A DNA stretch of 45,551 bases, taken from NCBI GenBank assembly GCA_964603435.1, contig CAZRUM010000002.1, positions 1 through 45,551 of the forward strand. The letters run 5' to 3'. Origin of the DNA: an uncultured Gammaproteobacteria bacterium. GTDB lineage: Bacteria > Patescibacteriota > Patescibacteriia > Magasanikbacterales > UBA922. Under the pieces are notes generated by a model that worked only from the letters and a program-made list of their open reading frames with translations, had not been told where the DNA came from and ran no database searches. Positions 1,441-41,398 of this stretch are shown here, piece after piece. Both the position numbers and the translations under genes were made by a program. Numbering within the stretch: position 1 is the first letter of the stretch; every line of letters starts with the position of its first letter.

Positions 1441-3465
1441 ATGAATAAATTTAAACTAAAAGCACCCTATAAACCAGCTGGTTCTCAGCCAAAAGCGATA
1501 AAGTCGCTTGTTTCAGGTTTGAGGAAGGGTTTTGAAAAACAAACTTTGCTTGGTGTGACTGGCTCTGGGAAGACTTTTACGGTTGCCAATGTAATAGAAC
1601 AAACACAATTGCCGACTTTGGTGATTGCTCACAACAAGACTCTGGCAGCCCAGCTTTGTAATGAATTTCGTGAATTTTTCCCAGATAATGCCGTGGAATA
1701 TTTTGTATCATATTATGATTATTATCAGCCAGAGGCATATATGCCAGGCAGTGATACTTATATAGAAAAGGAAGCACAGATAAATGAAGAAATAGATAGA
1801 TTGCGTCATGCTTGTACTCAGGCTTTGATTGCACGCAAAGATGTCATTATTGTGGCTAGTGTGTCTGCAATTTATTCGCTTGGTTCACCAAAAGAATATG
1901 AAAAAATTGTTTTGCATTTGGAAAAGAATCAAAAGTTAGATCGCCGTGGTATGATGGCGCAGCTCATTGATATGCAATTTACACGTACCAATCTCGATCT
2001 AAAACGTGGTCAGTTTCGTATGCATGGTCAGGTTTTTGAAATAATGCCGATTAATGAAGAAAAAATTTATCGTTTTGAAATTTCAAATAAAATTGATCTG
2101 ATAGAACTGGTTGACCCAATAACTAGAAAAGTAAAAGCAGAACTTCCCGATGCTTGGTTTTTTCCTGCCAAACATTATGTGGTGTCTGCAGAATCAAGAG
2201 AAAAAGCTTTTGGTAAAATAAAAGAAGAATTAAAAATACGTCTAGAATATTTAAAAAAGAAAGGTAAAGTTTTGGAATATGAAAGGTTAAAGCGAAAAGT
2301 AAAATATGATTTGGAAATGATAAAAAATATAGGTTATTGTAGTGGAATAGAAAATTATTCGGCTGTTTTTGAGGATAGACAGTCCGGTACACCTCCTTTT
2401 ACACTACTCGATTATTTCAAACATAGTTCAGAAGATTTCCTTACAATTATCGACGAATCACATGTCACTGTCCCACAAATTCGTGGAATGTACAATGGTG
2501 ACAAAGCTAGAAAAGAAACTCTTATTGAACACGGATTTCGTTTGCCAAGTGCTTTTGACAATAGACCTCTTAAGTTTCCTGAGTTTGAAAAAAGAACCAA
2601 GCGGGTTATCTATACTTCTGCTACCCCATCTGAATATGAAATAAAAAATAGTGATAAAGTGGTAGAGCAAGTTGTGCGCCCTACAGGTCTAATAGATCCG
2701 GAAATTGTTATTCGTCCTGTAACCGAGAGACCTGGTAAAAACAAATCTCAAATTGAAGATTTACTTATTCGTATTGATGAGCGAGTAAAAAATAAGGAAA
2801 GAGTGTTGGTGACTACACTTACAAAGAAAATGGCAGAAGATCTAAATGATTATTTGCGTGATAAGAAAATTAAAGCATTATATCTGCATAGTGATATAAA
2901 AACTATAGAGCGTATTGATATTATTACAAAACTTCGTAAAGGTGAAATAGATGTGTTGGTGGGAGTTAATCTACTACGTGAAGGTTTGGATATTCCAGAG
3001 GCATCGCTCGTGGCGATTCTCGATGCTGATAAAGAAGGTTTTCTTCGTAATGAAACTAGTCTAATTCAAACTATTGGTCGTGCAGCTAGAAATGTAAATG
3101 GACAGGTGGTAATGTATGCAGACAAAATTACAAAATCAATTGAGAAAGCTATTAGTGAAACTGACCGTCGTCGTAAAGTTCAGCTGGCTTATAATAAAAA
3201 ACATAATATTACACCAAAGACAATTCAGAAAAGTATTAAAAATATTTTGGAAGAGTTTGGTATTTCTTCTACTAAAGCCAAAAATGTTGCCAGAGGAAAA
3301 AGAAAAAAACAATTATTACAGTTGGATCTGGCAGGGGATGGGCGTCCTTTGAAAGAAATTATAAAAGATAAAGAAGATAAAATGAAAGAAGCTGCCCAGA
3401 ATCTGGAATTTGAACTAGCGGCGATTCTGAGAGATGAGTTGCGGGAGTTGAGGAGAATTAAATAA
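1441..3465 (+). CDS. uvrB: excinuclease ABC subunit B (UvrB)
   Basis: 674 aa; GVTGSGKT Walker A, helicase motifs, C-terminal UVR-type domain (ELRELRRIK). Confidence 0.95.
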   Translation: MNKFKLKAPYKPAGSQPKAIKSLVSGLRKGFEKQTLLGVTGSGKTFTVANVIEQTQLPTLVIAHNKTLAAQLCNEFREFFPDNAVEYFVSYYDYYQPEAYMPGSDTYIEKEAQINEEIDRLRHACTQALIARKDVIIVASVSAIYSLGSPKEYEKIVLHLEKNQKLDRRGMMAQLIDMQFTRTNLDLKRGQFRMHGQVFEIMPINEEKIYRFEISNKIDLIELVDPITRKVKAELPDAWFFPAKHYVVSAESREKAFGKIKEELKIRLEYLKKKGKVLEYERLKRKVKYDLEMIKNIGYCSGIENYSAVFEDRQSGTPPFTLLDYFKHSSEDFLTIIDESHVTVPQIRGMYNGDKARKETLIEHGFRLPSAFDNRPLKFPEFEKRTKRVIYTSATPSEYEIKNSDKVVEQVVRPTGLIDPEIVIRPVTERPGKNKSQIEDLLIRIDERVKNKERVLVTTLTKKMAEDLNDYLRDKKIKALYLHSDIKTIERIDIITKLRKGEIDVLVGVNLLREGLDIPEASLVAILDADKEGFLRNETSLIQTIGRAARNVNGQVVMYADKITKSIEKAISETDRRRKVQLAYNKKHNITPKTIQKSIKNILEEFGISSTKAKNVARGKRKKQLLQLDLAGDGRPLKEIIKDKEDKMKEAAQNLEFELAAILRDELRELRRIK

Positions 3466-4163: not shown

Positions 4164-6845
4164 ATGGAAAATAAAATAACAATTCGTGGAGCCAGAGAAC
4201 ACAACTTAAAAAATGTGGATCTTGAGTTGCCACGAAATAAAATGATAGCGTTTACAGGTTTGTCTGGGTCTGGAAAATCTAGTTTGGCTTTCGATACTAT
4301 TTTTGCTGAAGGACAGAGACGGTATATAGAGTCTTTGTCTGCTTATGCTCGTCAGTTTCTTGGTGGTATGAATAAACCAGATGTGGACGAAATAGATGGA
4401 TTGTCTCCAGCAATTTCTATTGACCAAAAAGCTCATAGTGCTAACCCGCGCTCGACAGTAGCGACTATCACGGAGATTTATGATTATCTGCGTGTGCTTT
4501 TTGCTAGGGTAGGAAAACCGTACTGTCCGGTTTGTAATACAAAGATAGACAAGATGACGACTGACGAAATGAACGAGCAAATTTTGAAAAGTTTTAAAAA
4601 AGATACCAAGAAAAAAAATAGTGAGATTATTATTCTTGCACCGGTTGTTCGTGGTAGAAAAGGGGAGTATTACCAGATGCTTTATGATATGTACAATACT
4701 GGTTTCCTAGAAGTAAGGGTTGATGGAAAAATGAAAAGTTTGAAAAATAAAATTGTACTCAAGAAAAATTTTAAGCATACAATTGAGATTGTGGTTGATA
4801 AAATAGCAACACTTTCTACAAAAGAAGGCAAAGATAGAATGGCCGAAGCAGTAGAAACTGCGGTAGATTTGTCAGATGGTTTGTGTACAGTAATTTTCCC
4901 AAATGAAAAAGAAGAGATTTTTAGTACAGAATATTCTTGTCCAAAGGATGGTTTTAGTTTTCCAGAAATAGAACCAAGGATGTTTAGTTTCAATAGCCCA
5001 TATGGATATTGTGATTATTGTACCGGTCTTGGTACCAAAAGTTTATTTTCAGAAGAAGTTTGTCCAAAGTGTGAAGGAAAGAGACTAAATAAAAATGCCT
5101 TGTCTGTAAAAGTGAATAAGAAAAATATTTGGGAGATTACAAATCTAACTATTGCTGAGGCTAGAGTCTTTTTCAATGAAATTCTTGATCACCTGAGTGA
5201 AAAAGATTTGGAAATTTCTAGTGCAGTGCTAAAAGAAATTTCCAATCGTCTTCAGTTTATGTTTGAAGTCGGTTTGCATTACCTTACGCTCAATAGAAGA
5301 GCAGGTACTATGTCGGGTGGTGAGGCACAGAGAATAAGACTGGCTTCACAAGTTGGTACACGTTTGGTGGGTGCTTTGTATGTTTTGGATGAACCAACAA
5401 TTGGTTTGCATCAAAAAGATAATGATAGATTGGTTTCTACTTTGCGTAGTCTGTGTGACGTAGGTAATACTATCATTGTAGTAGAACATGACGAGGATAC
5501 AATCTTGGCAAGTGATTGGGTGGTGGATATTGGTCCAGGTGCTGGAACTCACGGAGGAGAGATTGTTTATTCTGGTCCCTTAAGTACAATGTTGAACGAA
5601 ACGAATCCGCCAGCTGGCGGAGGAGTGAAGTCGAAACATCCCGATGTAAAACAACGGGATCCTTCGACTACAACTTCCTCTTCGTTTCACTCAGGGTCAG
5701 TTTTCGCTCAGGATGAAAACTTTGGCTGTAAATTAATTGGTAGTGGAAAAGATTCTCTTACAGGAAAATATTTGCGTGGAGAAAAGAAAATTGAAATCCC
5801 AGCCAAGCGTAGAAAAGTAGATAATCATACCCCAAAAATTAAAATAAAAAAAGCAGCCGAGCATAATCTAAAAAATATTAATGTAGATATTCCATTGCGT
5901 CGTTTGGTTTGTCTGACAGGTGTGTCTGGTTCTGGGAAATCAACCTTGATGCATAAGATTTTGTATCGTGCGGTTGCAAACAGAGTAAATTATCATGGGC
6001 GTGTACCAGCTGACAAAAGAAAACAAACTGGCAAACACAAAGAAGTATTAAATACAGAGTACATTGATAAAATTATTAAGATTGATCAAAAAGCAATTGG
6101 TAGATCACCAAGATCAAATCCTGCCACATATACTGGCACGTGGACATATATCCGCGATCTTTTTGCTTCTACTCCAGAGGCAAAGATTCGTGGTTACAAA
6201 ACTGGTAGGTTTAGTTTCAATCGTCCTGGCGGTAGGTGTGATCATTGTGAGGGTAGGGGAACATTAGAAATTCAGATGCATTTTCTTCCGAGTGTAGAGA
6301 TTGTTTGTGATGTTTGCAAAGGAAAAAGATTCAATCAAGAGACTCTACAAATTCATTACAAGAAAAAAACTATTGCTGATGTCCTCGACATGACAATAGA
6401 AGAAGCGGAAGAATTTTTTCGTGACATTCCATATATTTATGATAAACTAAAAATGTTGAATCAGGTTGGACTAGATTATCTTACGCTTGGTCAGTCTGCC
6501 AAGACTCTTTCTGGTGGTGAGGCACAGAGAACAAAACTAAGTAAGGAACTTGCCAAGAGAAATACAACCAAGACCTTGTATCTGTTAGACGAGCCAACCA
6601 CTGGTTTGCATTACGAAGATGTAAAAAAATTAATTAAAGTTTTGCAGGATTTGGTTTCTAAAGGAAATACTGTCATGGTAATTGAGCATAATCTTGATGT
6701 TATCAAGTGTGCTGACTGGATTATTGATCTAGGACCAGAGGGTGGAGATAAGGGTGGGGAAGTGGTAACAACCGGAACACCAGAGCAGGTTGCAATGTCA
6801 GGTTTTAGTTATACTGGTAAATATTTAAAGCGTGTACTTAAATAA
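4164..6845 (+). CDS. uvrA: excinuclease ABC subunit A (UvrA), carrying an in-frame repeat-element insertion of about 43 aa
   Basis: 893 aa; two ABC ATPase modules (GLSGSGKSS, GVSGSGKSTL; LSGGEAQR signatures twice); Cys-rich zinc modules. An anomalous GC-rich segment NETNPPAGGGVKSK…SGKDSLTGKYL interrupts the normally short linker before the SLTG motif. Confidence 0.95.
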   Translation: MENKITIRGAREHNLKNVDLELPRNKMIAFTGLSGSGKSSLAFDTIFAEGQRRYIESLSAYARQFLGGMNKPDVDEIDGLSPAISIDQKAHSANPRSTVATITEIYDYLRVLFARVGKPYCPVCNTKIDKMTTDEMNEQILKSFKKDTKKKNSEIIILAPVVRGRKGEYYQMLYDMYNTGFLEVRVDGKMKSLKNKIVLKKNFKHTIEIVVDKIATLSTKEGKDRMAEAVETAVDLSDGLCTVIFPNEKEEIFSTEYSCPKDGFSFPEIEPRMFSFNSPYGYCDYCTGLGTKSLFSEEVCPKCEGKRLNKNALSVKVNKKNIWEITNLTIAEARVFFNEILDHLSEKDLEISSAVLKEISNRLQFMFEVGLHYLTLNRRAGTMSGGEAQRIRLASQVGTRLVGALYVLDEPTIGLHQKDNDRLVSTLRSLCDVGNTIIVVEHDEDTILASDWVVDIGPGAGTHGGEIVYSGPLSTMLNETNPPAGGGVKSKHPDVKQRDPSTTTSSSFHSGSVFAQDENFGCKLIGSGKDSLTGKYLRGEKKIEIPAKRRKVDNHTPKIKIKKAAEHNLKNINVDIPLRRLVCLTGVSGSGKSTLMHKILYRAVANRVNYHGRVPADKRKQTGKHKEVLNTEYIDKIIKIDQKAIGRSPRSNPATYTGTWTYIRDLFASTPEAKIRGYKTGRFSFNRPGGRCDHCEGRGTLEIQMHFLPSVEIVCDVCKGKRFNQETLQIHYKKKTIADVLDMTIEEAEEFFRDIPYIYDKLKMLNQVGLDYLTLGQSAKTLSGGEAQRTKLSKELAKRNTTKTLYLLDEPTTGLHYEDVKKLIKVLQDLVSKGNTVMVIEHNLDVIKCADWIIDLGPEGGDKGGEVVTTGTPEQVAMSGFSYTGKYLKRVLK
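5655..5714 (+). repeat. Family-1 hairpin repeat (CGGGATCCTTCG…CTCAGGAT), long variant, in-frame inside uvrA. The wider inserted segment is about 5607..5735.
   Basis: Shares both termini with the copies at 34940, 36456, 41353 and with the minus-orientation copies at 18543 and 41236. Flanked by palindromes ccgccagctggcgg and acatcccgatgt. Confidence 0.7.
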
Positions 6846-6984: not shown

Positions 6985-8301
6985 ATGGTTAATCTAGAGA
7001 ATAAAATTAAATCGTTTTCATCTGAGCCTGGAATATATCTCTTCTTTAATAAAAAGAAAGAGCTTGTTTATGTTGGGAAAGCAACAAATCTGCGAGCACG
7101 AGTGAGAAGTTATTTCGCAGGAGCAAAAACCTCACGTCCGATAGAACAAATGATTCACCAGGTCGAGAATATTAGAATAAAACAAACTGACAGTGTTTTG
7201 GAAGCTATAATTCTAGAAGCTAATTACATTAAAAAATTTAGACCAAAGTATAATGTTGATTTGAAGGATGATAAGTCGTGGAACTATATCGTGATAACCA
7301 AAGATAGTTATCCTAAAGTTAAGACGATTCGTGCACATGAGCTGGGCGATGTTCTAAATGTTGAAAGTATTAAAAATGTTGTAAATGATAAACAATTACA
7401 ACAGTTAGAACAGGTAAAACAATTTCAACACGTATTCGGCCCTTATCCTGGATTAAACACAAAAGCGACCATGAGATTACTTCAACGTCTGTTTTATATC
7501 TCTACTTGCAGGTCAAATGCAAAGCGGGCTTGTCTTTATCACCAGATGGGACAATGCCTTGGTGTTTGTACGGGGGAGATCACGTCAGCAGAATATAAAA
7601 AGAAAGTAATAAGCCCACTGGTAAAATTTTTACGTGGAAATAAAAAAGGTTTGATACGAGATCTGATTAAAAAAATGAAAGTGGAAAGTAAAGAACAGAA
7701 TTTTGAAGAAGCGGGGAGACTGCGAAATCAAATAAAAGCCTTGGAGAGAATTCACGATATTGCGTTGTTGAATAAAAGTTTTACAGTAGAGACGAGCCTT
7801 GGCGCGTCTCAAAAGTACAAAGTACAACGCGTAGAAGGATACGACATTTCAAATCTAGGTGATACCGGAAAAGTAGGAAGTATGGTTGTATTTGAAAATA
7901 ATTACCCAAACAAATCACAATATAGAAAATTTAAAATTAAAAATGTTGTGGGACAGAGTGATGTTCATTGTCTGGCAGAAATGCTTGAGCGAAGACTAAA
8001 ACACAAAGAATGGAAAATGCCAAATGTATTTTTGATAGACGGTGGTAAACCACAAGTAAATACTACCAAGAAAATTTTAAAAGAAAATAATATTAAAATA
8101 CCAGTGGTAGGAATTGCCAAAGGTCCAGACAGAAAAAAGAATGAAATACACATTGATTTCACAGATTATAAAAAAGATTCCACAGATAAAAAGAATTTTA
8201 TAGAATGGGTTTACAAAAATACCAAGCTTCTTATACAAGTCCGAGATGAGGCGCATAGGTTTGCGATAAAATATCAGAGAAGTTTGAGAAAAATAAAATA
8301 A
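6985..8301 (+). CDS. uvrC: excinuclease ABC subunit C (UvrC), short form lacking the C-terminal (HhH)2 domain
   Basis: 438 aa; N-terminal GIY-YIG (GIYLFFNKKKELVYVGKATNLRARV), Cys-rich region, UVR motif (EEAGRLRNQIKALE), RNase H-like endonuclease domain. The ORF ends before any HhH region. Confidence 0.85.
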   Translation: MVNLENKIKSFSSEPGIYLFFNKKKELVYVGKATNLRARVRSYFAGAKTSRPIEQMIHQVENIRIKQTDSVLEAIILEANYIKKFRPKYNVDLKDDKSWNYIVITKDSYPKVKTIRAHELGDVLNVESIKNVVNDKQLQQLEQVKQFQHVFGPYPGLNTKATMRLLQRLFYISTCRSNAKRACLYHQMGQCLGVCTGEITSAEYKKKVISPLVKFLRGNKKGLIRDLIKKMKVESKEQNFEEAGRLRNQIKALERIHDIALLNKSFTVETSLGASQKYKVQRVEGYDISNLGDTGKVGSMVVFENNYPNKSQYRKFKIKNVVGQSDVHCLAEMLERRLKHKEWKMPNVFLIDGGKPQVNTTKKILKENNIKIPVVGIAKGPDRKKNEIHIDFTDYKKDSTDKKNFIEWVYKNTKLLIQVRDEAHRFAIKYQRSLRKIK

Positions 8302-8305
8302 AAAA

Positions 8306-8335
8306 ATCCCGCCAAATAGGCGGGTTTTGTTTGAG
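8306..8335. terminator. intrinsic terminator after uvrC
   Basis: cccgccaaataggcggg followed by ttttgttt; an A7 tract upstream makes it bidirectional. Confidence 0.65.
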
Positions 8336-8500: not shown

Positions 8501-8530
8501 TTGAATATTTTGTCAAGGTGTATATTCATA

Positions 8531-8566
8531 AAAAAATCCCGCCAATTAGACGGGTTTTGTTTGAGA
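8531..8566. terminator. second copy of the cccgcc…gcggg terminator module
   Basis: aaaaaaatcccgccaattagacgggttttgtttgag is near-identical to 8299..8336. Confidence 0.55.
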
Positions 8567-11139: not shown

Positions 11140-11480
11140 ACACATACACAAATAAAAACAAAACAATGAGACAAAGAAAAATGGCCGTTAGACAATGGCT
11201 ACTTAGTACTAGTTTTAGGGCGGGTTTGCTTGTTGTGATTGCTTTTTTTGGAATAATGTATGTGGCTCAAACTAGCTCCGCCTCTACCAAAGGTTATGAA
11301 ATTAGAGATATTGAGAAGCAGCTTCAGACTCTAGAACAAGAAAATCAAAAACTGGAATTTGAAATTGCCACTCACAGATCTATGCAAAGTATCCAAAGTA
11401 GATTGCAAAATACAAATTTAGTTGTTGCTGATAATATGGAATATGTAACTTTGGTGGGTACTGCAGTGGCACGTCGCTAA
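11136..11480 (+). CDS. FtsL-like cell-division protein (single transmembrane helix plus coiled coil)
   Basis: 114 aa; one TM helix then a coiled coil (EKQLQTLEQENQKLEFEIA); canonical ftsL position after rsmH; 4-nt overlap with rsmH. Confidence 0.5.
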   Translation: MNTYTNKNKTMRQRKMAVRQWLLSTSFRAGLLVVIAFFGIMYVAQTSSASTKGYEIRDIEKQLQTLEQENQKLEFEIATHRSMQSIQSRLQNTNLVVADNMEYVTLVGTAVARR

Positions 11481-11516
11481 CTCACTTAACTACTTTACCA
11501 CCTGACCACTTTACCA

Positions 11517-11537
11517 CTCCCATTTATGGGAGTTTTG
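11517..11537 (+). terminator. intrinsic terminator after the ftsL-like gene
   Basis: ctcccatttatgggag followed by ttttgtttt. Confidence 0.5.
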
Positions 11538-11619
11538 TTTTATTTATGGTATAATAATTTAAGATTTATCTCCGTAGAGAGATGCCCTGTGGGTATGATT
11601 TTAGATTTAGAATTTTAAT

Positions 11620-34939: not shown

Positions 34940-34974
34940 CGGGATCCTTCGATTCGCTATGCTCACTCAGGATT
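34940..34974 (+). repeat. Family-1 hairpin repeat as a 5' leader: CGGGATCCTTCGATTCGCTATGCTCACTCAGGATT then gtgtATG
   Basis: Canonical 34-nt copy; the AGGA at its 3' end lies 8 nt before the cupin ATG. Confidence 0.7.
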
Positions 34975-34978
34975 GTGT

Positions 34979-35380
34979 ATGAAGTTTAAAAAATTAAAAT
35001 TAAAAATTGTAGAAAATGATAAAGCAACTTATAGTTTTGCTGAGCTTAAGGATTTTGTAGATTGGAAAGTAAAACGAGTTTATTATATTCAAAATGTAAA
35101 AGAAAATACAGGTCAACATTGTCACAAGGAAGAAAAAGAATTGTTTGTCATGGTATCTGGTAGTTGTACTGCCATTATTGACCAGGGGAATGGCAAAGAA
35201 GATGTTTTATTAGAGGGACCTGGTGATGCGATTTATGTAGGTGGTTATGTTTGGCATGGATTTAAAGATTTTGCCCCGGGTTCAGTATTGTTGGCATTGT
35301 CTTCAACAAATTATAAAGAGGATAGAAGTGACTATGTAGAGGATTATGAGGAATATAAAAAGTTAGTAGAAAGTTTATAA
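34979..35380 (+). CDS. WxcM/FdtA-like cupin (dTDP-4-keto-6-deoxyglucose 3,4-ketoisomerase family)
   Basis: 134 aa; TGQHCHKEEKELFVMVSG matches the G-x-H-x-H-K FdtA-type motif. Confidence 0.65.
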   Translation: MKFKKLKLKIVENDKATYSFAELKDFVDWKVKRVYYIQNVKENTGQHCHKEEKELFVMVSGSCTAIIDQGNGKEDVLLEGPGDAIYVGGYVWHGFKDFAPGSVLLALSSTNYKEDRSDYVEDYEEYKKLVESL

Positions 35381-35539
35381 AGTATCCGCCAAAGGCGGAC
35401 CAGCCTTTGGCTGGGAAAGTCAAAAGTATTTATTGACCGCCATGGTGGTGGTTTTTTGTTTTGGTATTGACAAAGTATATTTTTTATGGTAAAAGAAGTA
35501 TAGAAAACAACGCCACGGGAGTGGCAGGAGGTTCTTACA

Positions 35540-36241
35540 ATGGCAAAGATTTCTTTGCGTGGGGTTGTCGGGTACGAGGGTGGTACTTTGGAGTGGTTGC
35601 AAAAGGTCTCGCTCGGGGGAGAACCTCGTCTCGACCTGGCAATCGCCGTGGTAACCCAGTACCGTCGGGCTCGGGCGTTCCAGCGGTCGGAGGATGAGAG
35701 CGACCAGGAGTATGGGGTGATGCTGATGAATCAGTTCATCATCCACATGGTTTCTCTCGGTCACCACTACTTGGTCCAGGGCGACATTCCTGCGGCCTGG
35801 CTCGCTGAGCACAACAAGGCTTCTGCTCTGCACGTTCTCGGTGAGCACAACAAGGCTGACGTCATCAACCGTCAGATCCTCGTTGAGATCGATGGTTACC
35901 GTGAGGAGCACGAGGTACTCGACGAGGACGGCGAGTTCGTCGAACTCAAAGTCTTTTTCGGCTTGGTGGAGAACAACGAGGAGTACCGGCAACAAGTCGG
36001 TCACGAGACCTGGGGTCAGAAGGTAGAGCACATGAAGGAAATGCATCTACCCGACTACCCGGGCCGGGTCGAGGTTTACGTCAAGTATCTGCTTGAGGAA
36101 GATCTCATGAGCAAGGGTGAAGCTTCGTTCAAGATTGGCGAAGTACTCATTTACTGCTGTGATATTCACCTCTTCGGTAAGTACGATCAGCTCGAGCGTC
36201 TGCGCCTGTTCGCCCTCTCTCTTCAGGGGCACACCGACTAG
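35540..36241 (+). CDS. hypothetical acidic 233-aa protein, GC-rich
   Basis: SD AGGAGG 8 nt upstream of the ATG; long GC-rich ORF. The overlapping minus-strand ORF 35420..36046 looks like antisense noise. Confidence 0.55.
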   Translation: MAKISLRGVVGYEGGTLEWLQKVSLGGEPRLDLAIAVVTQYRRARAFQRSEDESDQEYGVMLMNQFIIHMVSLGHHYLVQGDIPAAWLAEHNKASALHVLGEHNKADVINRQILVEIDGYREEHEVLDEDGEFVELKVFFGLVENNEEYRQQVGHETWGQKVEHMKEMHLPDYPGRVEVYVKYLLEEDLMSKGEASFKIGEVLIYCCDIHLFGKYDQLERLRLFALSLQGHTD

Positions 36242-36354
36242 GGGCACACTTCACTTCTTCTTTTCATCCTTCCCTAAGGTCATTGAATTGACCAGTTCTT
36301 TCTATTCCCACCCCACCCCGCCGCATGACATCCTTCCTGCGGCAACTTCAAAAG

Positions 36355-36378
36355 AATCCGATATGATCGGGTTTTTTT
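36355..36378 (+). terminator. intrinsic terminator after the GC-rich ORF
   Basis: ccgatatgatcgg followed by T7. Confidence 0.5.
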
Positions 36379-36455
36379 GTTTAATGGCGTAGACTTGAAA
36401 AAAAACTCTAAAAAGGCTATAATTGTGAATATATTATTTAGATTGAGCTTTAAAC

Positions 36456-36492
36456 ACGGGATCCTTCGATTCGCTGCGCTCACTCAGGATTT
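36456..36492 (+). repeat. Family-1 hairpin repeat as a 5' leader: CGGGATCCTTCGATTCGCTGCGCTCACTCAGGATTT then acttATG
   Basis: Differs at 2 positions from the 34940 copy; a TATAAT at 36411..36416 lies upstream; the AGGA lies 9 nt before the ATG. Confidence 0.7.
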
Positions 36493-36496
36493 ACTT

Positions 36497-37345
36497 ATGA
36501 AAAACAAGAAACTCCTTATTTTAGGCGCCAAGGGTAATCTTGGTTCTGTTTTGTTAGATATTTTTTCAGATAAATATGAAGTGACAGCTTGGGATTTTGC
36601 AGAGTGTGATATTACCGATGAAAATTCTCTAGAGAGTATTAAAGAATTGGTTCCAGATATTATTATCAATGCGACTGGTTATAATGATGTTGATAAGGCA
36701 GAAGATGAAGGTAAAGAAATGGTTTACAAAGTAAATGCAGGAGCTGTGGGAAATCTTGCTAAGTTAGCAAAAGAATTAGACAGTGTGTTTGTGACTTACT
36801 CTACTGATTATGTTTTTGATGGAGAAAAGGGAAGTGGATATACAGAAGAAGATGTACCAAGTCCTGTTTCTGAATACGGCAAGTCAAAATATGAAGGTGA
36901 GAAATTGGTCCGTGAAGTTTGTGAAAAATATTATATTATTCGTCCCTCATGGATTTTTGGGGTAGATGGTTCTGGTAAAAAAAGTTTTATAAATTTAATG
37001 CTTGACTTAGTTGTTAATCAAGGTAAAACACACTTGGATGTGGAAGAGTCAAGTGTTAGTAGTCCAACTTATTCTGTCGACTTGGCAAAATTAACAAGGG
37101 AAATTATTGAAGGCGAATATGAGTATGGAATTTATCATGGTAGCAATACTGGGCAGTGCAGTCGTTATGAATGGGCTCAGAAAATGTTTGAATTAAAAAA
37201 TATCAAAGTAAACATAACTCCCGTGGATGAGGATTTTTTTCCTCGTACAGCAAGACGTCCAAAGTATTCTGTTTTACTTAATACAAAATTACCTGCGTCA
37301 AGAAGTTGGCAACATGCCCTGGAAGAATATTTAAAAACTATCTAA
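36497..37345 (+). CDS. dTDP-4-dehydrorhamnose reductase-like (RmlD family NAD(P)-dependent epimerase/reductase)
   Basis: 282 aa from the ATG at 36497 (MKNKKLLILGAKGNLG); RmlD substrate-binding-domain-like. The upstream in-frame extension to 36377 is unlikely to be translated. Confidence 0.7.
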   Translation: MKNKKLLILGAKGNLGSVLLDIFSDKYEVTAWDFAECDITDENSLESIKELVPDIIINATGYNDVDKAEDEGKEMVYKVNAGAVGNLAKLAKELDSVFVTYSTDYVFDGEKGSGYTEEDVPSPVSEYGKSKYEGEKLVREVCEKYYIIRPSWIFGVDGSGKKSFINLMLDLVVNQGKTHLDVEESSVSSPTYSVDLAKLTREIIEGEYEYGIYHGSNTGQCSRYEWAQKMFELKNIKVNITPVDEDFFPRTARRPKYSVLLNTKLPASRSWQHALEEYLKTI

Positions 37346-41235: not shown

Positions 41236-41270
41236 AATCCTGAGAGAGCTCGAGCGACCGAAGGATCCCG
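41236..41270 (-). repeat. Family-1 hairpin repeat, minus orientation, immediately after the GT2 stop
   Basis: AATCCTGAGAGAGCTCGAGCGACCGAAGGATCCCG is the reverse complement of the canonical element. Confidence 0.65.
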
Positions 41271-41286
41271 ATGTAAAAATAAAAAA

Positions 41287-41322
41287 ACAACGAGATATTT
41301 CAATCTCGTTGTTTTTTGTTTA
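41287..41322. terminator. bidirectional intrinsic terminator between the convergent genes
   Basis: A7, caacgagatatttcaatctcgttg, T6. Confidence 0.7.
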
Positions 41323-41352
41323 TAATTTTATATATTGTTTATTTTTCTGACA

Positions 41353-41398
41353 CGGGATCCTTCGACCCCCCTTCGTAAATTCAGGGTTGCTCAGGATT
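41353..41398 (+). repeat. Family-1 hairpin repeat, plus orientation, forming an inverted pair with 41236..41270
   Basis: CGGGATCCTTCGACCCCCCTTCGTAAATTCAGGGTTGCTCAGGATT. The outer termini AACCAATCCTGAG / CTCAGGATTGGTT are inverted repeats extending into both stop codons. Confidence 0.65.

Follow-up and report, generated by a model that had tools for sequence, protein, structure and literature searches.

SsnA of Neisseria is a 94-aa single-domain GIY-YIG nuclease that binds a hairpin repeat, NTS (CGTCATTCCCGCG...GCGGGAATC), in single-stranded DNA (Chenal et al. 2025, Nat Commun, PMC11893778). The enzymes of Neisseria and Wolbachia cut just upstream of the hairpin and are inactive on duplex DNA and on RNA; Ssn homologues are widespread and flanked by Ssn-related motifs (SRMs), and the NTS-ssnA-NTS layout has been likened to insertion sequences and to REP/RAYT systems (PMC11893778). 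Rickettsia and Wolbachia are among the SRM-richest genomes, Rickettsia being listed with more than 300 SRMs, and NTS copies lie rarely inside genes (2%), with no mention of in-frame copies; the nucleases and repeats were first described in 2025, and the mobility of repeat-ssn-repeat units was left untested by the authors (PMC11893778). Here, we analyze a GC-rich segment lying in frame within uvrA on a 45,551-nt stretch of Patescibacteria DNA (contig CAZRUM010000002.1, hereafter the window; 36% GC overall, 0.363), which is probably a decayed, cargo-less inverted doublet of Ssn-type repeats. The Ssn/SRM system itself was already known; what this locus adds is a new repeat class, a host among Patescibacteria, and in-frame copies that recur at one site in UvrA.

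Like the Ssn/SRM system, this one comprises a ~95-aa single-domain nuclease homologous to the NTS-flanked Neisseria protein, a gene bracketed by inverted 35-60-nt hairpin repeats with a GTCAT outer end in most lineages though not in the window, and repeats that are many, dispersed and mostly intergenic, in an insertion sequence-like layout. Unlike published SRMs, the arm has two stems, a conserved internal loop and an ATCCT/AGGAT stem, and does not match the search pattern; this subfamily is known from sequence alone. The Patescibacteria host is absent from the main text of the Ssn paper (PMC11893778), and a gene-less doublet here lies inside a coding sequence and in frame. Rickettsia palindromic elements (RPEs), palindromes of ~100-150 bp, likewise occur in frame in unrelated housekeeping genes at fold-compatible sites and frequently between genes (Ogata et al. 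2000, 2002, as summarised in PMC10969869); unlike the present repeat, for which there is a candidate, they have no known partner enzyme, and the likeness is one of behaviour rather than of compared RPE family sequences. REPIN/RAYT systems (Nunvar 2010, PMC2817692; Bertels and Rainey 2011) share the unit of two inverted hairpins with a short spacer, a single-copy partner gene that is itself repeat-flanked, and an implied single-stranded DNA stage. Their partner is a HUH tyrosine transposase, whereas here it is a hydrolytic GIY-YIG nuclease, and REPs are species-specific and extragenic by definition, whereas the sequence of this family is conserved across many phyla. [quoted passage not shown] Differences from MITEs are that no target-site duplication was recognisable at the uvrA copy and that the candidate autonomous form carries no known transposase class.

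The uvrA insert and its copies in the window

The UvrA protein of the window was closest to Candidatus Magasanikbacteria/Patescibacteria proteins by BLASTP (best 77-78% identity; orthologues 70-78%), and its best match to UvrA structures in the Protein Data Bank (PDB) had E 1e-104. Its Walker, signature and zinc-finger residues are all invariant against 53 orthologues. A first-pass annotation, made from the DNA letters, had reported a GC-rich in-frame segment in an otherwise conserved uvrA, and this was borne out: the open reading frame (ORF) is intact, and GC is 0.485 in the insert vs 0.369 in the remaining gene. The annotation had the segment right and its position wrong; placed at 5607-5735 with ~43 codons, it is best delimited at 5586-5717, about 20 nt to the left, as 132 nt or 44 codons (residues T475-E518). 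Positions 5718-5735 (NFGCKL; NFGCKLIGSGKD) are conserved lineage-specific UvrA sequence outside the repeat. Two arms, the first reversed and the second forward, make up the insert together with the 11 nt that separate them:

4164-6845, + strand: uvrA, the host gene, 893 aa (ORF and translation), in a uvrB-orf-uvrA-uvrC cluster
5586-5643, + strand: left arm of the uvrA doublet, in the GTCAT/NTS orientation, ACAATGTTGAACGAA..CCGCCAGCTGGCGG..GAAGTCGAAACATCCCG
5644-5654, + strand: spacer ATGTAAAACAA between the arms, the position at which full cassettes hold the ssn gene
5655-5717, + strand: right (forward) arm, CGGGATCCTTCGAC...TCAGGGT..GCTCAGGATGAA, outer stem ATCCT/AGGAT, from 12-mer statistics and alignment with the other copies

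The left arm has the outer stem ATGTT/AACAT and the inner hairpin CCGCCAGCTGGCGG; it is homologous to GTCATGTTGAGCGAA..GTCGAAACATCCC in uvrA of three relatives (loci L001, L186 and L188) and also to TGTCATCCTGAGCGAATCCGCCCACTGGCGGAGAAGTCGAAGGATCTC, the left terminal repeat of ssn cassette L125. The outer GTC is lost at both ends of the insert (ACAAT.., ..ATGAA). The RNA fold, a check proposed by the annotation, gave -47.4 kcal/mol for 5600-5740 (z -4.0 vs shuffles), and the DNA fold of 5586-5717 gave -27.6 kcal/mol (z -4.85 vs shuffles). The call of a structured repeat element thus holds in its strong fold, although the structure is an inverted doublet and not a single hairpin; of the extra palindromes proposed, ccgccagctggcgg (5607-5620) is perfect and acatcccgatgt is merely a 4-bp stem. 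Only the frame reading VILSE...AQDD is stop-free across the doublet. TGA codons in the left arm (frame 2) and in one of the right-arm frames explain why the same peptides recur. The translated insert, TMLNET...FAQDE (44 aa; next residue N), contains the peptide DPSTTTSSSFHSGSVFAQDENFGCK.

The annotation had also noted termini common to intergenic repeats, and the counts agree: the 12-mer that opens the forward arm, CGGGATCCTTCG, has 6 exact copies in 45.5 kb against 0.07 expected, plus one copy with 1 mismatch (sites 5655+, 18582-, 19012+ with the mismatch, 34940+, 36457+, 41270- and 41353+). In the copy at 19012, the mismatch is compensated in the stem partner (GGATTCT..AGAATT). The other terminus, GCTCAGGAT, is not significant by itself and is informative only jointly with the 12-mer. 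The other copies, with the nuclease gene that some of them flank, are as follows:

18543-18582, - strand: forward arm downstream of ssn, ending CTCAGGATT, 4 nt (AAAT) from the recR ATG
18671-18700, - strand: partial reversed arm, ..GAACGCAGTGAGGTGGAAGAATCCCG, immediately past the ssn stop codon, read directly
18701-18994, - strand: ssn-like gene encoding a 97-aa single-domain GIY-YIG nuclease, between ybaB (19056-19352) and recR (17944-18537)
19012-19053, + strand: arm upstream of ssn, CGGGATTCTTCG..CTCAGAATT, in gene orientation AATTCTGAG..CGAAGAATCCCG
34940-34974, + strand: solo arm directly 5' of an FdtA/WxcM-like gene
36457-36491, + strand: solo arm directly 5' of an RmlD-like gene; the arm shares 94% identity with the copy at 34940
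41236-41397, no strand assigned: intergenic doublet between convergent genes, with reversed arm 41236-41270, an 82-nt spacer and forward arm 41353-41397

One plan recurs at the three composite sites, namely reversed arm, middle and forward arm, the middle being the nuclease gene, the 82-nt spacer or the 11 nt in uvrA. The junction CCCGATGTAAAA is common only to the uvrA doublet and the doublet at 41267-41278 (2 matches, 0 expected), and the duplicated end TCAGGGT..GCTCAGGAT occurs in both of these doublets, the solo arms and the L001 orthologue being without it. The shared junction and duplicated end point to sequence exchange between the uvrA and 41.3-kb copies inside this genome. The outer end of the copies in the window reads (C)AAT.. 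or ACAAT.., where relatives have GTCAT.

Some arms adjoin possible expression signals. Three forward arms (34966-34988, 36483-36499 and 18535-18551) end CTCAGGATT, 4-5 nt before the ATG of the FdtA-like gene, the RmlD-like gene and recR, and the AGGA at the repeat end, 6-7 nt 5' of those ATGs, may act as a ribosome-binding site. The 41271-41352 spacer carries a terminator-like hairpin between A and T runs (AAAAAAACAACGAGATATTTCAATCTCGTTGTTTTTTG), between two convergent genes, and the arms of this doublet likely bracket a bidirectional terminator.

The nuclease gene and the repeat family

The ssn-like ORF has Pfam GIY-YIG as its only domain (E 2.4e-15). As the Neisseria comparator we used a 94-aa ORF on a gonococcal chromosome with nine NTS copies within 1.5 kb; the window nuclease is 40% identical to this NTS-flanked N. 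gonorrhoeae ORF (pairwise E 7e-19), and the family profile of the window nuclease aligned to it over its full length with 99.9% probability and E 4e-31 (hhalign). By these comparisons, the GIY-YIG protein of the window is homologous to SsnA of Neisseria. NCBIfam and PDB sequence searches with the nuclease gave no match, and a profile search with its family returned 8000 unnamed single-domain proteins with no Neisseria entry among them.

A metagenome search with the window protein yielded 58 loci at 33-60% identity (best segment), a sample that is unbiased for the DNA motif because it was chosen by protein similarity only. The left end, GTCATCCTGAG, was scored with up to 2 mismatches, the background being the density more than 700 nt from the gene. 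Left ends lay within 300 nt upstream of the nuclease gene in 39 of the 58 loci (background 3.8%) and right ends within 200 nt downstream in 38 (background 2.5%); 25 loci had both. A typical cassette reads TGTCATCCTGAGC..GTCGAAGGATCT, gene, AGATCCTTCGAC..GCTCAGGATGACA, its ends being mutual reverse complements, inner hairpin included. The orthologous cassette L192 has matching arms around its ssn gene, and a relative with a 77%-identical Ssn likewise has its cassette between ybaB and recR. Cassette flanks showed no constant target duplication. The association holds from gene to repeat and not from repeat to gene: the idea that a GIY-YIG gene stands beside every repeat copy was refuted, with 2 of the ~120 motif-selected genome loci listed having one within 8 kb.

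Ssn-family genes are rare among viral contigs, with 12 loci (L194-L205) in the 2.9 million contigs of IMG/VR, and phages are therefore unlikely to be their main carriers.

The arm of this repeat is a two-stem hairpin. Its outer stem has 5 bp, its internal loop (GAGCG.. / ..GTCGA) is conserved, and its inner hairpin is free in sequence. The outer stem covaries among ATCCT/AGGAT, ATGCT/AGCAT, ATGTT/AACAT and ATTCT/AGAAT; counted by type, ATCCT/AGGAY occurs in 49 units, ATGCT/AGCAT in 18, ATGTT/AACAT in 3 and GTCCT/AGGAC in 2. It is fully paired in 35 of 104 units vs 12.5 with shuffled partners, figures that are a direct count, the fixed-length collapsed alignment having left 32 distinct rows with many chance pattern matches. 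Inner hairpins are unrelated in sequence between copies (median z -3.8), and the ATGTT/AACAT stem type is also found beside ssn genes. In relatives and other phyla, the outer end of the arm is GTCAT, both in pan-bacterial copies and in uvrA of L001, L186 and L188.

We scanned one genome per species with the pattern GGGATCCTTCG-N8-38-CTCAGGAT. Among the matches listed, Acidobacteriota appear most often, together with Verrucomicrobiota, Chloroflexota, Patescibacteria, Clostridia, Planctomycetota and others. An alignment by eye gave a unit made up of GGGATCCTTCGACTxCG, a free-sequence hairpin and CTxCGCTCAGGATGACA, with its reverse complement often 20-35 nt upstream. Rfam reported no family in the window at gathering thresholds, none in 5500-5800 at E up to 10 and none overlapping the repeats in 18 loci of other phyla, an Acido-Lenti-1 match in L053 lying 1.3 kb from the repeat; a full-text literature search for the repeat sequence or its peptides returned unrelated papers only. 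The published SRM pattern matches the Neisseria NTS and gives 3 matches in 239 kb of ssn loci. Because the same arms bracket an SsnA-homologous gene, we assign the repeat on sequence grounds to the Ssn-related hairpin motifs, as a large class that lies outside the published search pattern and was missed by it.

The UvrA linker across orthologues

The annotation had described an insertion relative to the normal linker, and both orthologues and solved UvrA structures agree. Against Geobacillus UvrA (2r6f), the window protein has 47 extra residues between ...MNDPN(603) and SLTGQYL, a zero-length gap in 2r6f; the alignment edges are ...LSTMLNETN against 2r6f 502-603 and ...KDSLTGKYL from 602. We compared linker lengths in 120 UvrA proteins and read the DNA of eight orthologues. 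From GGxxxxSGP to SLTG, the linker spans 14-70 aa (median 31) and is 30 aa or shorter in 56 of the 120, while the right-arm peptide (..AQDD and variants) is present in 26. The position is occupied in at least 15 lineages, and occupied and short linkers are interleaved on a tree made without the linker.

In L001, L186 and L188, uvrA contains GTCATGTTGAGCGAA..GTCGAAACATCCC, a spacer and GGGATCCTTCGAC..CTCAGGATGA, the same asymmetric ATGTT/AACAT plus ATCCT/AGGAT pair as in the window. Since this pair is common to all four, the uvrA copy appears to predate their divergence and to be old rather than recent. Homologous inserts occur in independent assemblies (L001 and L002, L003 and L004, L186, L188). 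Other relatives differ in their arms, L185 and L183 having a left arm of the ATTCT/AGAAT type and L003 a symmetric arm pair. For L001 and L003, identity outside the insert is 90% (protein) and 86% (DNA), vs 41% inside it. The occupied uvrA of L183 (protein P0010) and the unoccupied one of L184 (P0014) encode proteins that are 96% identical, with 90.7% identity in DNA. Between the window and the more distant L001, the core motifs are near-identical, vs 46% identity at 4-fold sites elsewhere in the gene. The motif GGGATCCTT(C/T)GAC yields (R/G)DPST in three cases (the window, L001 and L186), GSFD in L188 and GSFA in proteins P0091 and P0096. One DNA motif translated in two frames argues that the conserved entity is the DNA and not the peptide; close relatives do carry a homologous insert, conserved at the DNA level, where protein-level conservation would have contradicted the annotation. 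The history of the insert, as read from these alignments, includes replacement or repeated entry besides descent. One conserved gene supplies a natural series of occupied and unoccupied sites, differing repeat versions at the same codon in 90%-identical proteins, exchange and decay, which makes element movement, recombination and the contribution of protein sequence testable.

Other linkers hold other sequences. The linker of L187 uvrA (11441-11608; P0008, and also P0073) carries an unrelated, very stable G/C palindrome, TCTCCCCCTATCAGGGGGAG...CCCCCCCTGATAGGGGGGGA; these 168 nt have an RNA fold of -72 kcal/mol and are translated as PLSGGAGGG..PPLTPPDRGG, so the UvrA linker accepts more than one repeat family. 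The L184 linker is AT-rich (22% GC) with no recognisable arm. Its 11414-11509 segment (ENLLKKDTNKKLQITNDNN) is faintly like an AT-eroded doublet (AATCTTTTGA.. vs GTCATCCTGA..; ..ACAAATGATAAT vs ..GCTCAGGATGAC), and old insertions might be the source of every long UvrA linker in Magasanikbacteria, an unproven idea. Near their uvr loci, relatives have small nuclease genes of the PDDEXK_3 (GxxExxY) type (L003:15524-15901, L183:3323-3727, L184:5124-5528), that of L003 being absent from the syntenic L001.

In an AlphaFold model (54-sequence alignment, mean predicted local distance difference test score (pLDDT) 79), residues 481-514 have pLDDT below 50 and no secondary structure, and the product of the insert is predicted to be a disordered loop between the two ATPase modules. 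At the start of the element, the codons for TML take the place of the final turn of a native helix. Against 1.84 billion representatives, the 44-aa peptide gave 5 weak matches only, at least 4 of them in several stretches. The likeness to RPEs and MITEs in a tolerant loop, proposed in the annotation, is supported by the predicted disorder and by repeats at other genes.

Further in-frame copies were seen elsewhere. In UvrA orthologues, other variable loops are occupied in frame at L186:9317-9430, L186:9641-9748 and L001:10700-10789; these copies are solo arms (KGSLASSLG, KKDSSPR..) and, in L186 uvrA, another complete doublet (SVILSERSESKDP...AQNDN), which precedes the linker by ~330 codons. The window UvrA is empty at those sites. 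Among motif-selected loci of other phyla, a solo arm read as SVILSE..SKDP lies in frame in three settings:

L059:3030-3077, + strand: editing domain of a Gammaproteobacteria leucyl-tRNA synthetase (LeuRS), before the FTTRPDT motif
L095 ~7250-7300, - strand: penicillin-binding protein (PBP) transpeptidase
L019 ~4815-4865, - strand: class II ribonucleotide reductase (RNR) of Acidobacteriales, in the C-terminal tail

In ~190 kb of Magasanikbacteria DNA, a scan with a strict pattern, blind to the GTC-less copies of the window itself, found only uvrA copies within ORFs, plus one likely chance match in L187 uvrA. Translation of such arms offers an explanation for peptides such as VILSEAKDP, DPS...AQDD and GSFA.AQDD, which recur both in proteins and in the spurious ORFs that metagenome-assembled genomes contain.

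Origin of the insert and rival explanations

The segment in uvrA is thus quite probably a decayed Ssn-repeat doublet without cargo, sitting in the inter-ATPase linker as translated passenger DNA. Such a doublet would have entered the UvrA linker in the ancestor of this Magasanikbacteria lineage, and the resident Ssn would recognise its arms in single-stranded DNA, as the published biochemistry on homologues suggests. Doublets may arise when the gene between the arms is lost, to judge by their architecture, and single-strand cutting, with host repair or recombination after it, could bring copies to new sites or let them overwrite old ones. We give this route of spreading somewhat less than an even chance, with plain homologous exchange between copies taking most of the remainder. 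Persistence would be favoured by the stop-free frame, by a surface linker that tolerates 14-70 residues and by a product predicted to be disordered. Given that the outer GTC is gone from both ends, the uvrA copy is most likely an immobile fossil without a function of its own; old and probably immobile as it is, we regard it as still exchanging sequence with other copies.

Several observations weigh against this account. Our view of the genome is one 45.5-kb window, so that only 45 kb of it has been seen. The published SRM pattern, HGTCWYN(0-2)YYVSBRHN(0-5)WNVSBRGN(0-2)RNCYNB, has no match in the window, and the copies of this genome are without the GTCAT called crucial for SsnA binding (PMC11893778). 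The alignment of orthologues that the annotation had proposed as a search for empty sites settled insert status and linker length, but it yielded no clean empty site and no target-site duplication in the orthologues compared; in the L183/L184 pair, ~19 native codons are replaced by ~40 with no simple insertion, and MAFFT gave no clean boundaries. The insert is old, the cassette stands at the same ybaB-recR position in a relative, and no recent movement was seen. GIY-YIG nucleases act by hydrolysing DNA, strand joining is not known for them, and Ssn alone therefore cannot be a transposase. Selection for something done by the insert could, moreover, account for one codon position being occupied repeatedly in many lineages.

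In a first rival, the insert is kept for its nucleic-acid structure at uvrA, as an Ssn cutting site on single-stranded uvrA DNA that limits or directs recombination or transformation, or as an mRNA hairpin that slows translation between the ATPase modules. The strong fold, the doubly compensated left-arm stem ATGTT/AACAT retained in four lineages and the occupation of one linker position in at least 15 lineages all favour it, as does the modulation of transformation by NTS/SsnA in Neisseria (PMC11893778). We consider it unlikely, given that 56 of 120 linkers are 30 aa or shorter, that P0014 lacks a recognisable element though 96% identical to a bearer, and that P0008 and P0073 have an unrelated G/C palindrome in the same linker; ATGTT/AACAT is a natural subtype also seen beside ssn genes, the ends of the window copy are degraded, and RNA is not a substrate of Ssn (PMC11893778). 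Alternatively, the arms may be REP/REPIN-type repeats moved by a HUH tyrosine transposase (RAYT/IS200-like) encoded elsewhere, with the ssn gene a mere passenger. A hairpin doublet with a short spacer is the exact REPIN layout, a parallel also made in the Ssn paper (PMC11893778), and an ssn gene lies within the fetched 8 kb in only 2 of the 120 motif-found loci listed. The ssn association is nevertheless ~15-25x background, and it has an orientation: upstream of the gene the arm is reversed, downstream it is forward. Binding and cutting at hairpins of this kind are documented for Ssn homologues (PMC11893778), and no RAYT was noticed in the window, which was not searched exhaustively, nor any Y1 transposase among the selected ORFs scanned against Pfam; we therefore hold this rival to be quite improbable.

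An ordinary lineage-specific linker under protein-level selection, its repeat likeness coincidental or secondary, would fit the Magasanikbacteria linkers all being longer than those of Geobacillus or E. coli, and the first three element codons replacing a native helix turn (LSTML vs LxxLL). It is made very improbable by the exact 12-mer and shared junction far beyond chance, and is contradicted by the same DNA motif being read in two frames; the predicted disorder and the 5 weak peptide matches in 1.84 billion representatives also speak against it. Scarcely any weight attaches to removal of the segment, as a mini-intein, an intron or by translational bypass, or to an assembly artefact, for which nothing speaks beyond the insertion in a conserved gene; the segment is in frame and stop-free, has no Rfam intron or ribozyme match, and has homologous inserts in independent assemblies. 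An intein was rejected in particular, the 44 aa comparing with ~130 aa or more and there being no N-terminal Cys/Ser, as the segment starts TML and ends QDE, then N, without His-Asn plus Cys/Ser/Thr.

Beyond the decayed doublet in uvrA, a wider reading is tentative and, in our judgment, doubtful. Repeat-ssn-repeat cassettes and gene-less doublets might constitute a pan-bacterial class of mobile hairpins, driven by a GIY-YIG single-strand nuclease and repeatedly writing in frame into essential genes (UvrA in at least three loops, LeuRS, PBP and RNR), which would be the general mechanism of RPE-type coding palindromes; the Patescibacteria UvrA linker would then be a hot spot of insertion, overwriting by exchange and AT-biased erosion into ordinary-looking linker. 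We know of no case in prokaryotes in which the GIY-YIG class moves DNA elements. As a lead rather than a result, RPE-type peptides such as ..LDPVVKPRDD.. would derive from the GTCAT-plus-hairpin motif, and a true link to the Rickettsia coding palindromes would provide a candidate enzyme for a 25-year-old puzzle.

Two further genes of the uvr cluster flank the host gene:

1441-3465: uvrB, neighbour of uvrA
6985-8301: uvrC, neighbour of uvrA

The window also contains a distinct small family of terminator-like hairpins (AAAAATCCCGCCAnATnGGCGGGTTTT) at 8275-8333, 8505-8563 and 17873-17931, unrelated to the Ssn-type repeat. Between the solo arms at 34940 and 36457, within a sugar-nucleotide cluster, positions 35420-36392 have 45% GC; overlapping ORFs occupy both strands there, and none of them matches Pfam. 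Finally, positions 23001-24000, at 50% GC in a 36% window, may have been acquired; they overlap one ORF weakly like a 2-thiouracil desulfurase and another resembling a PP-loop ATPase.

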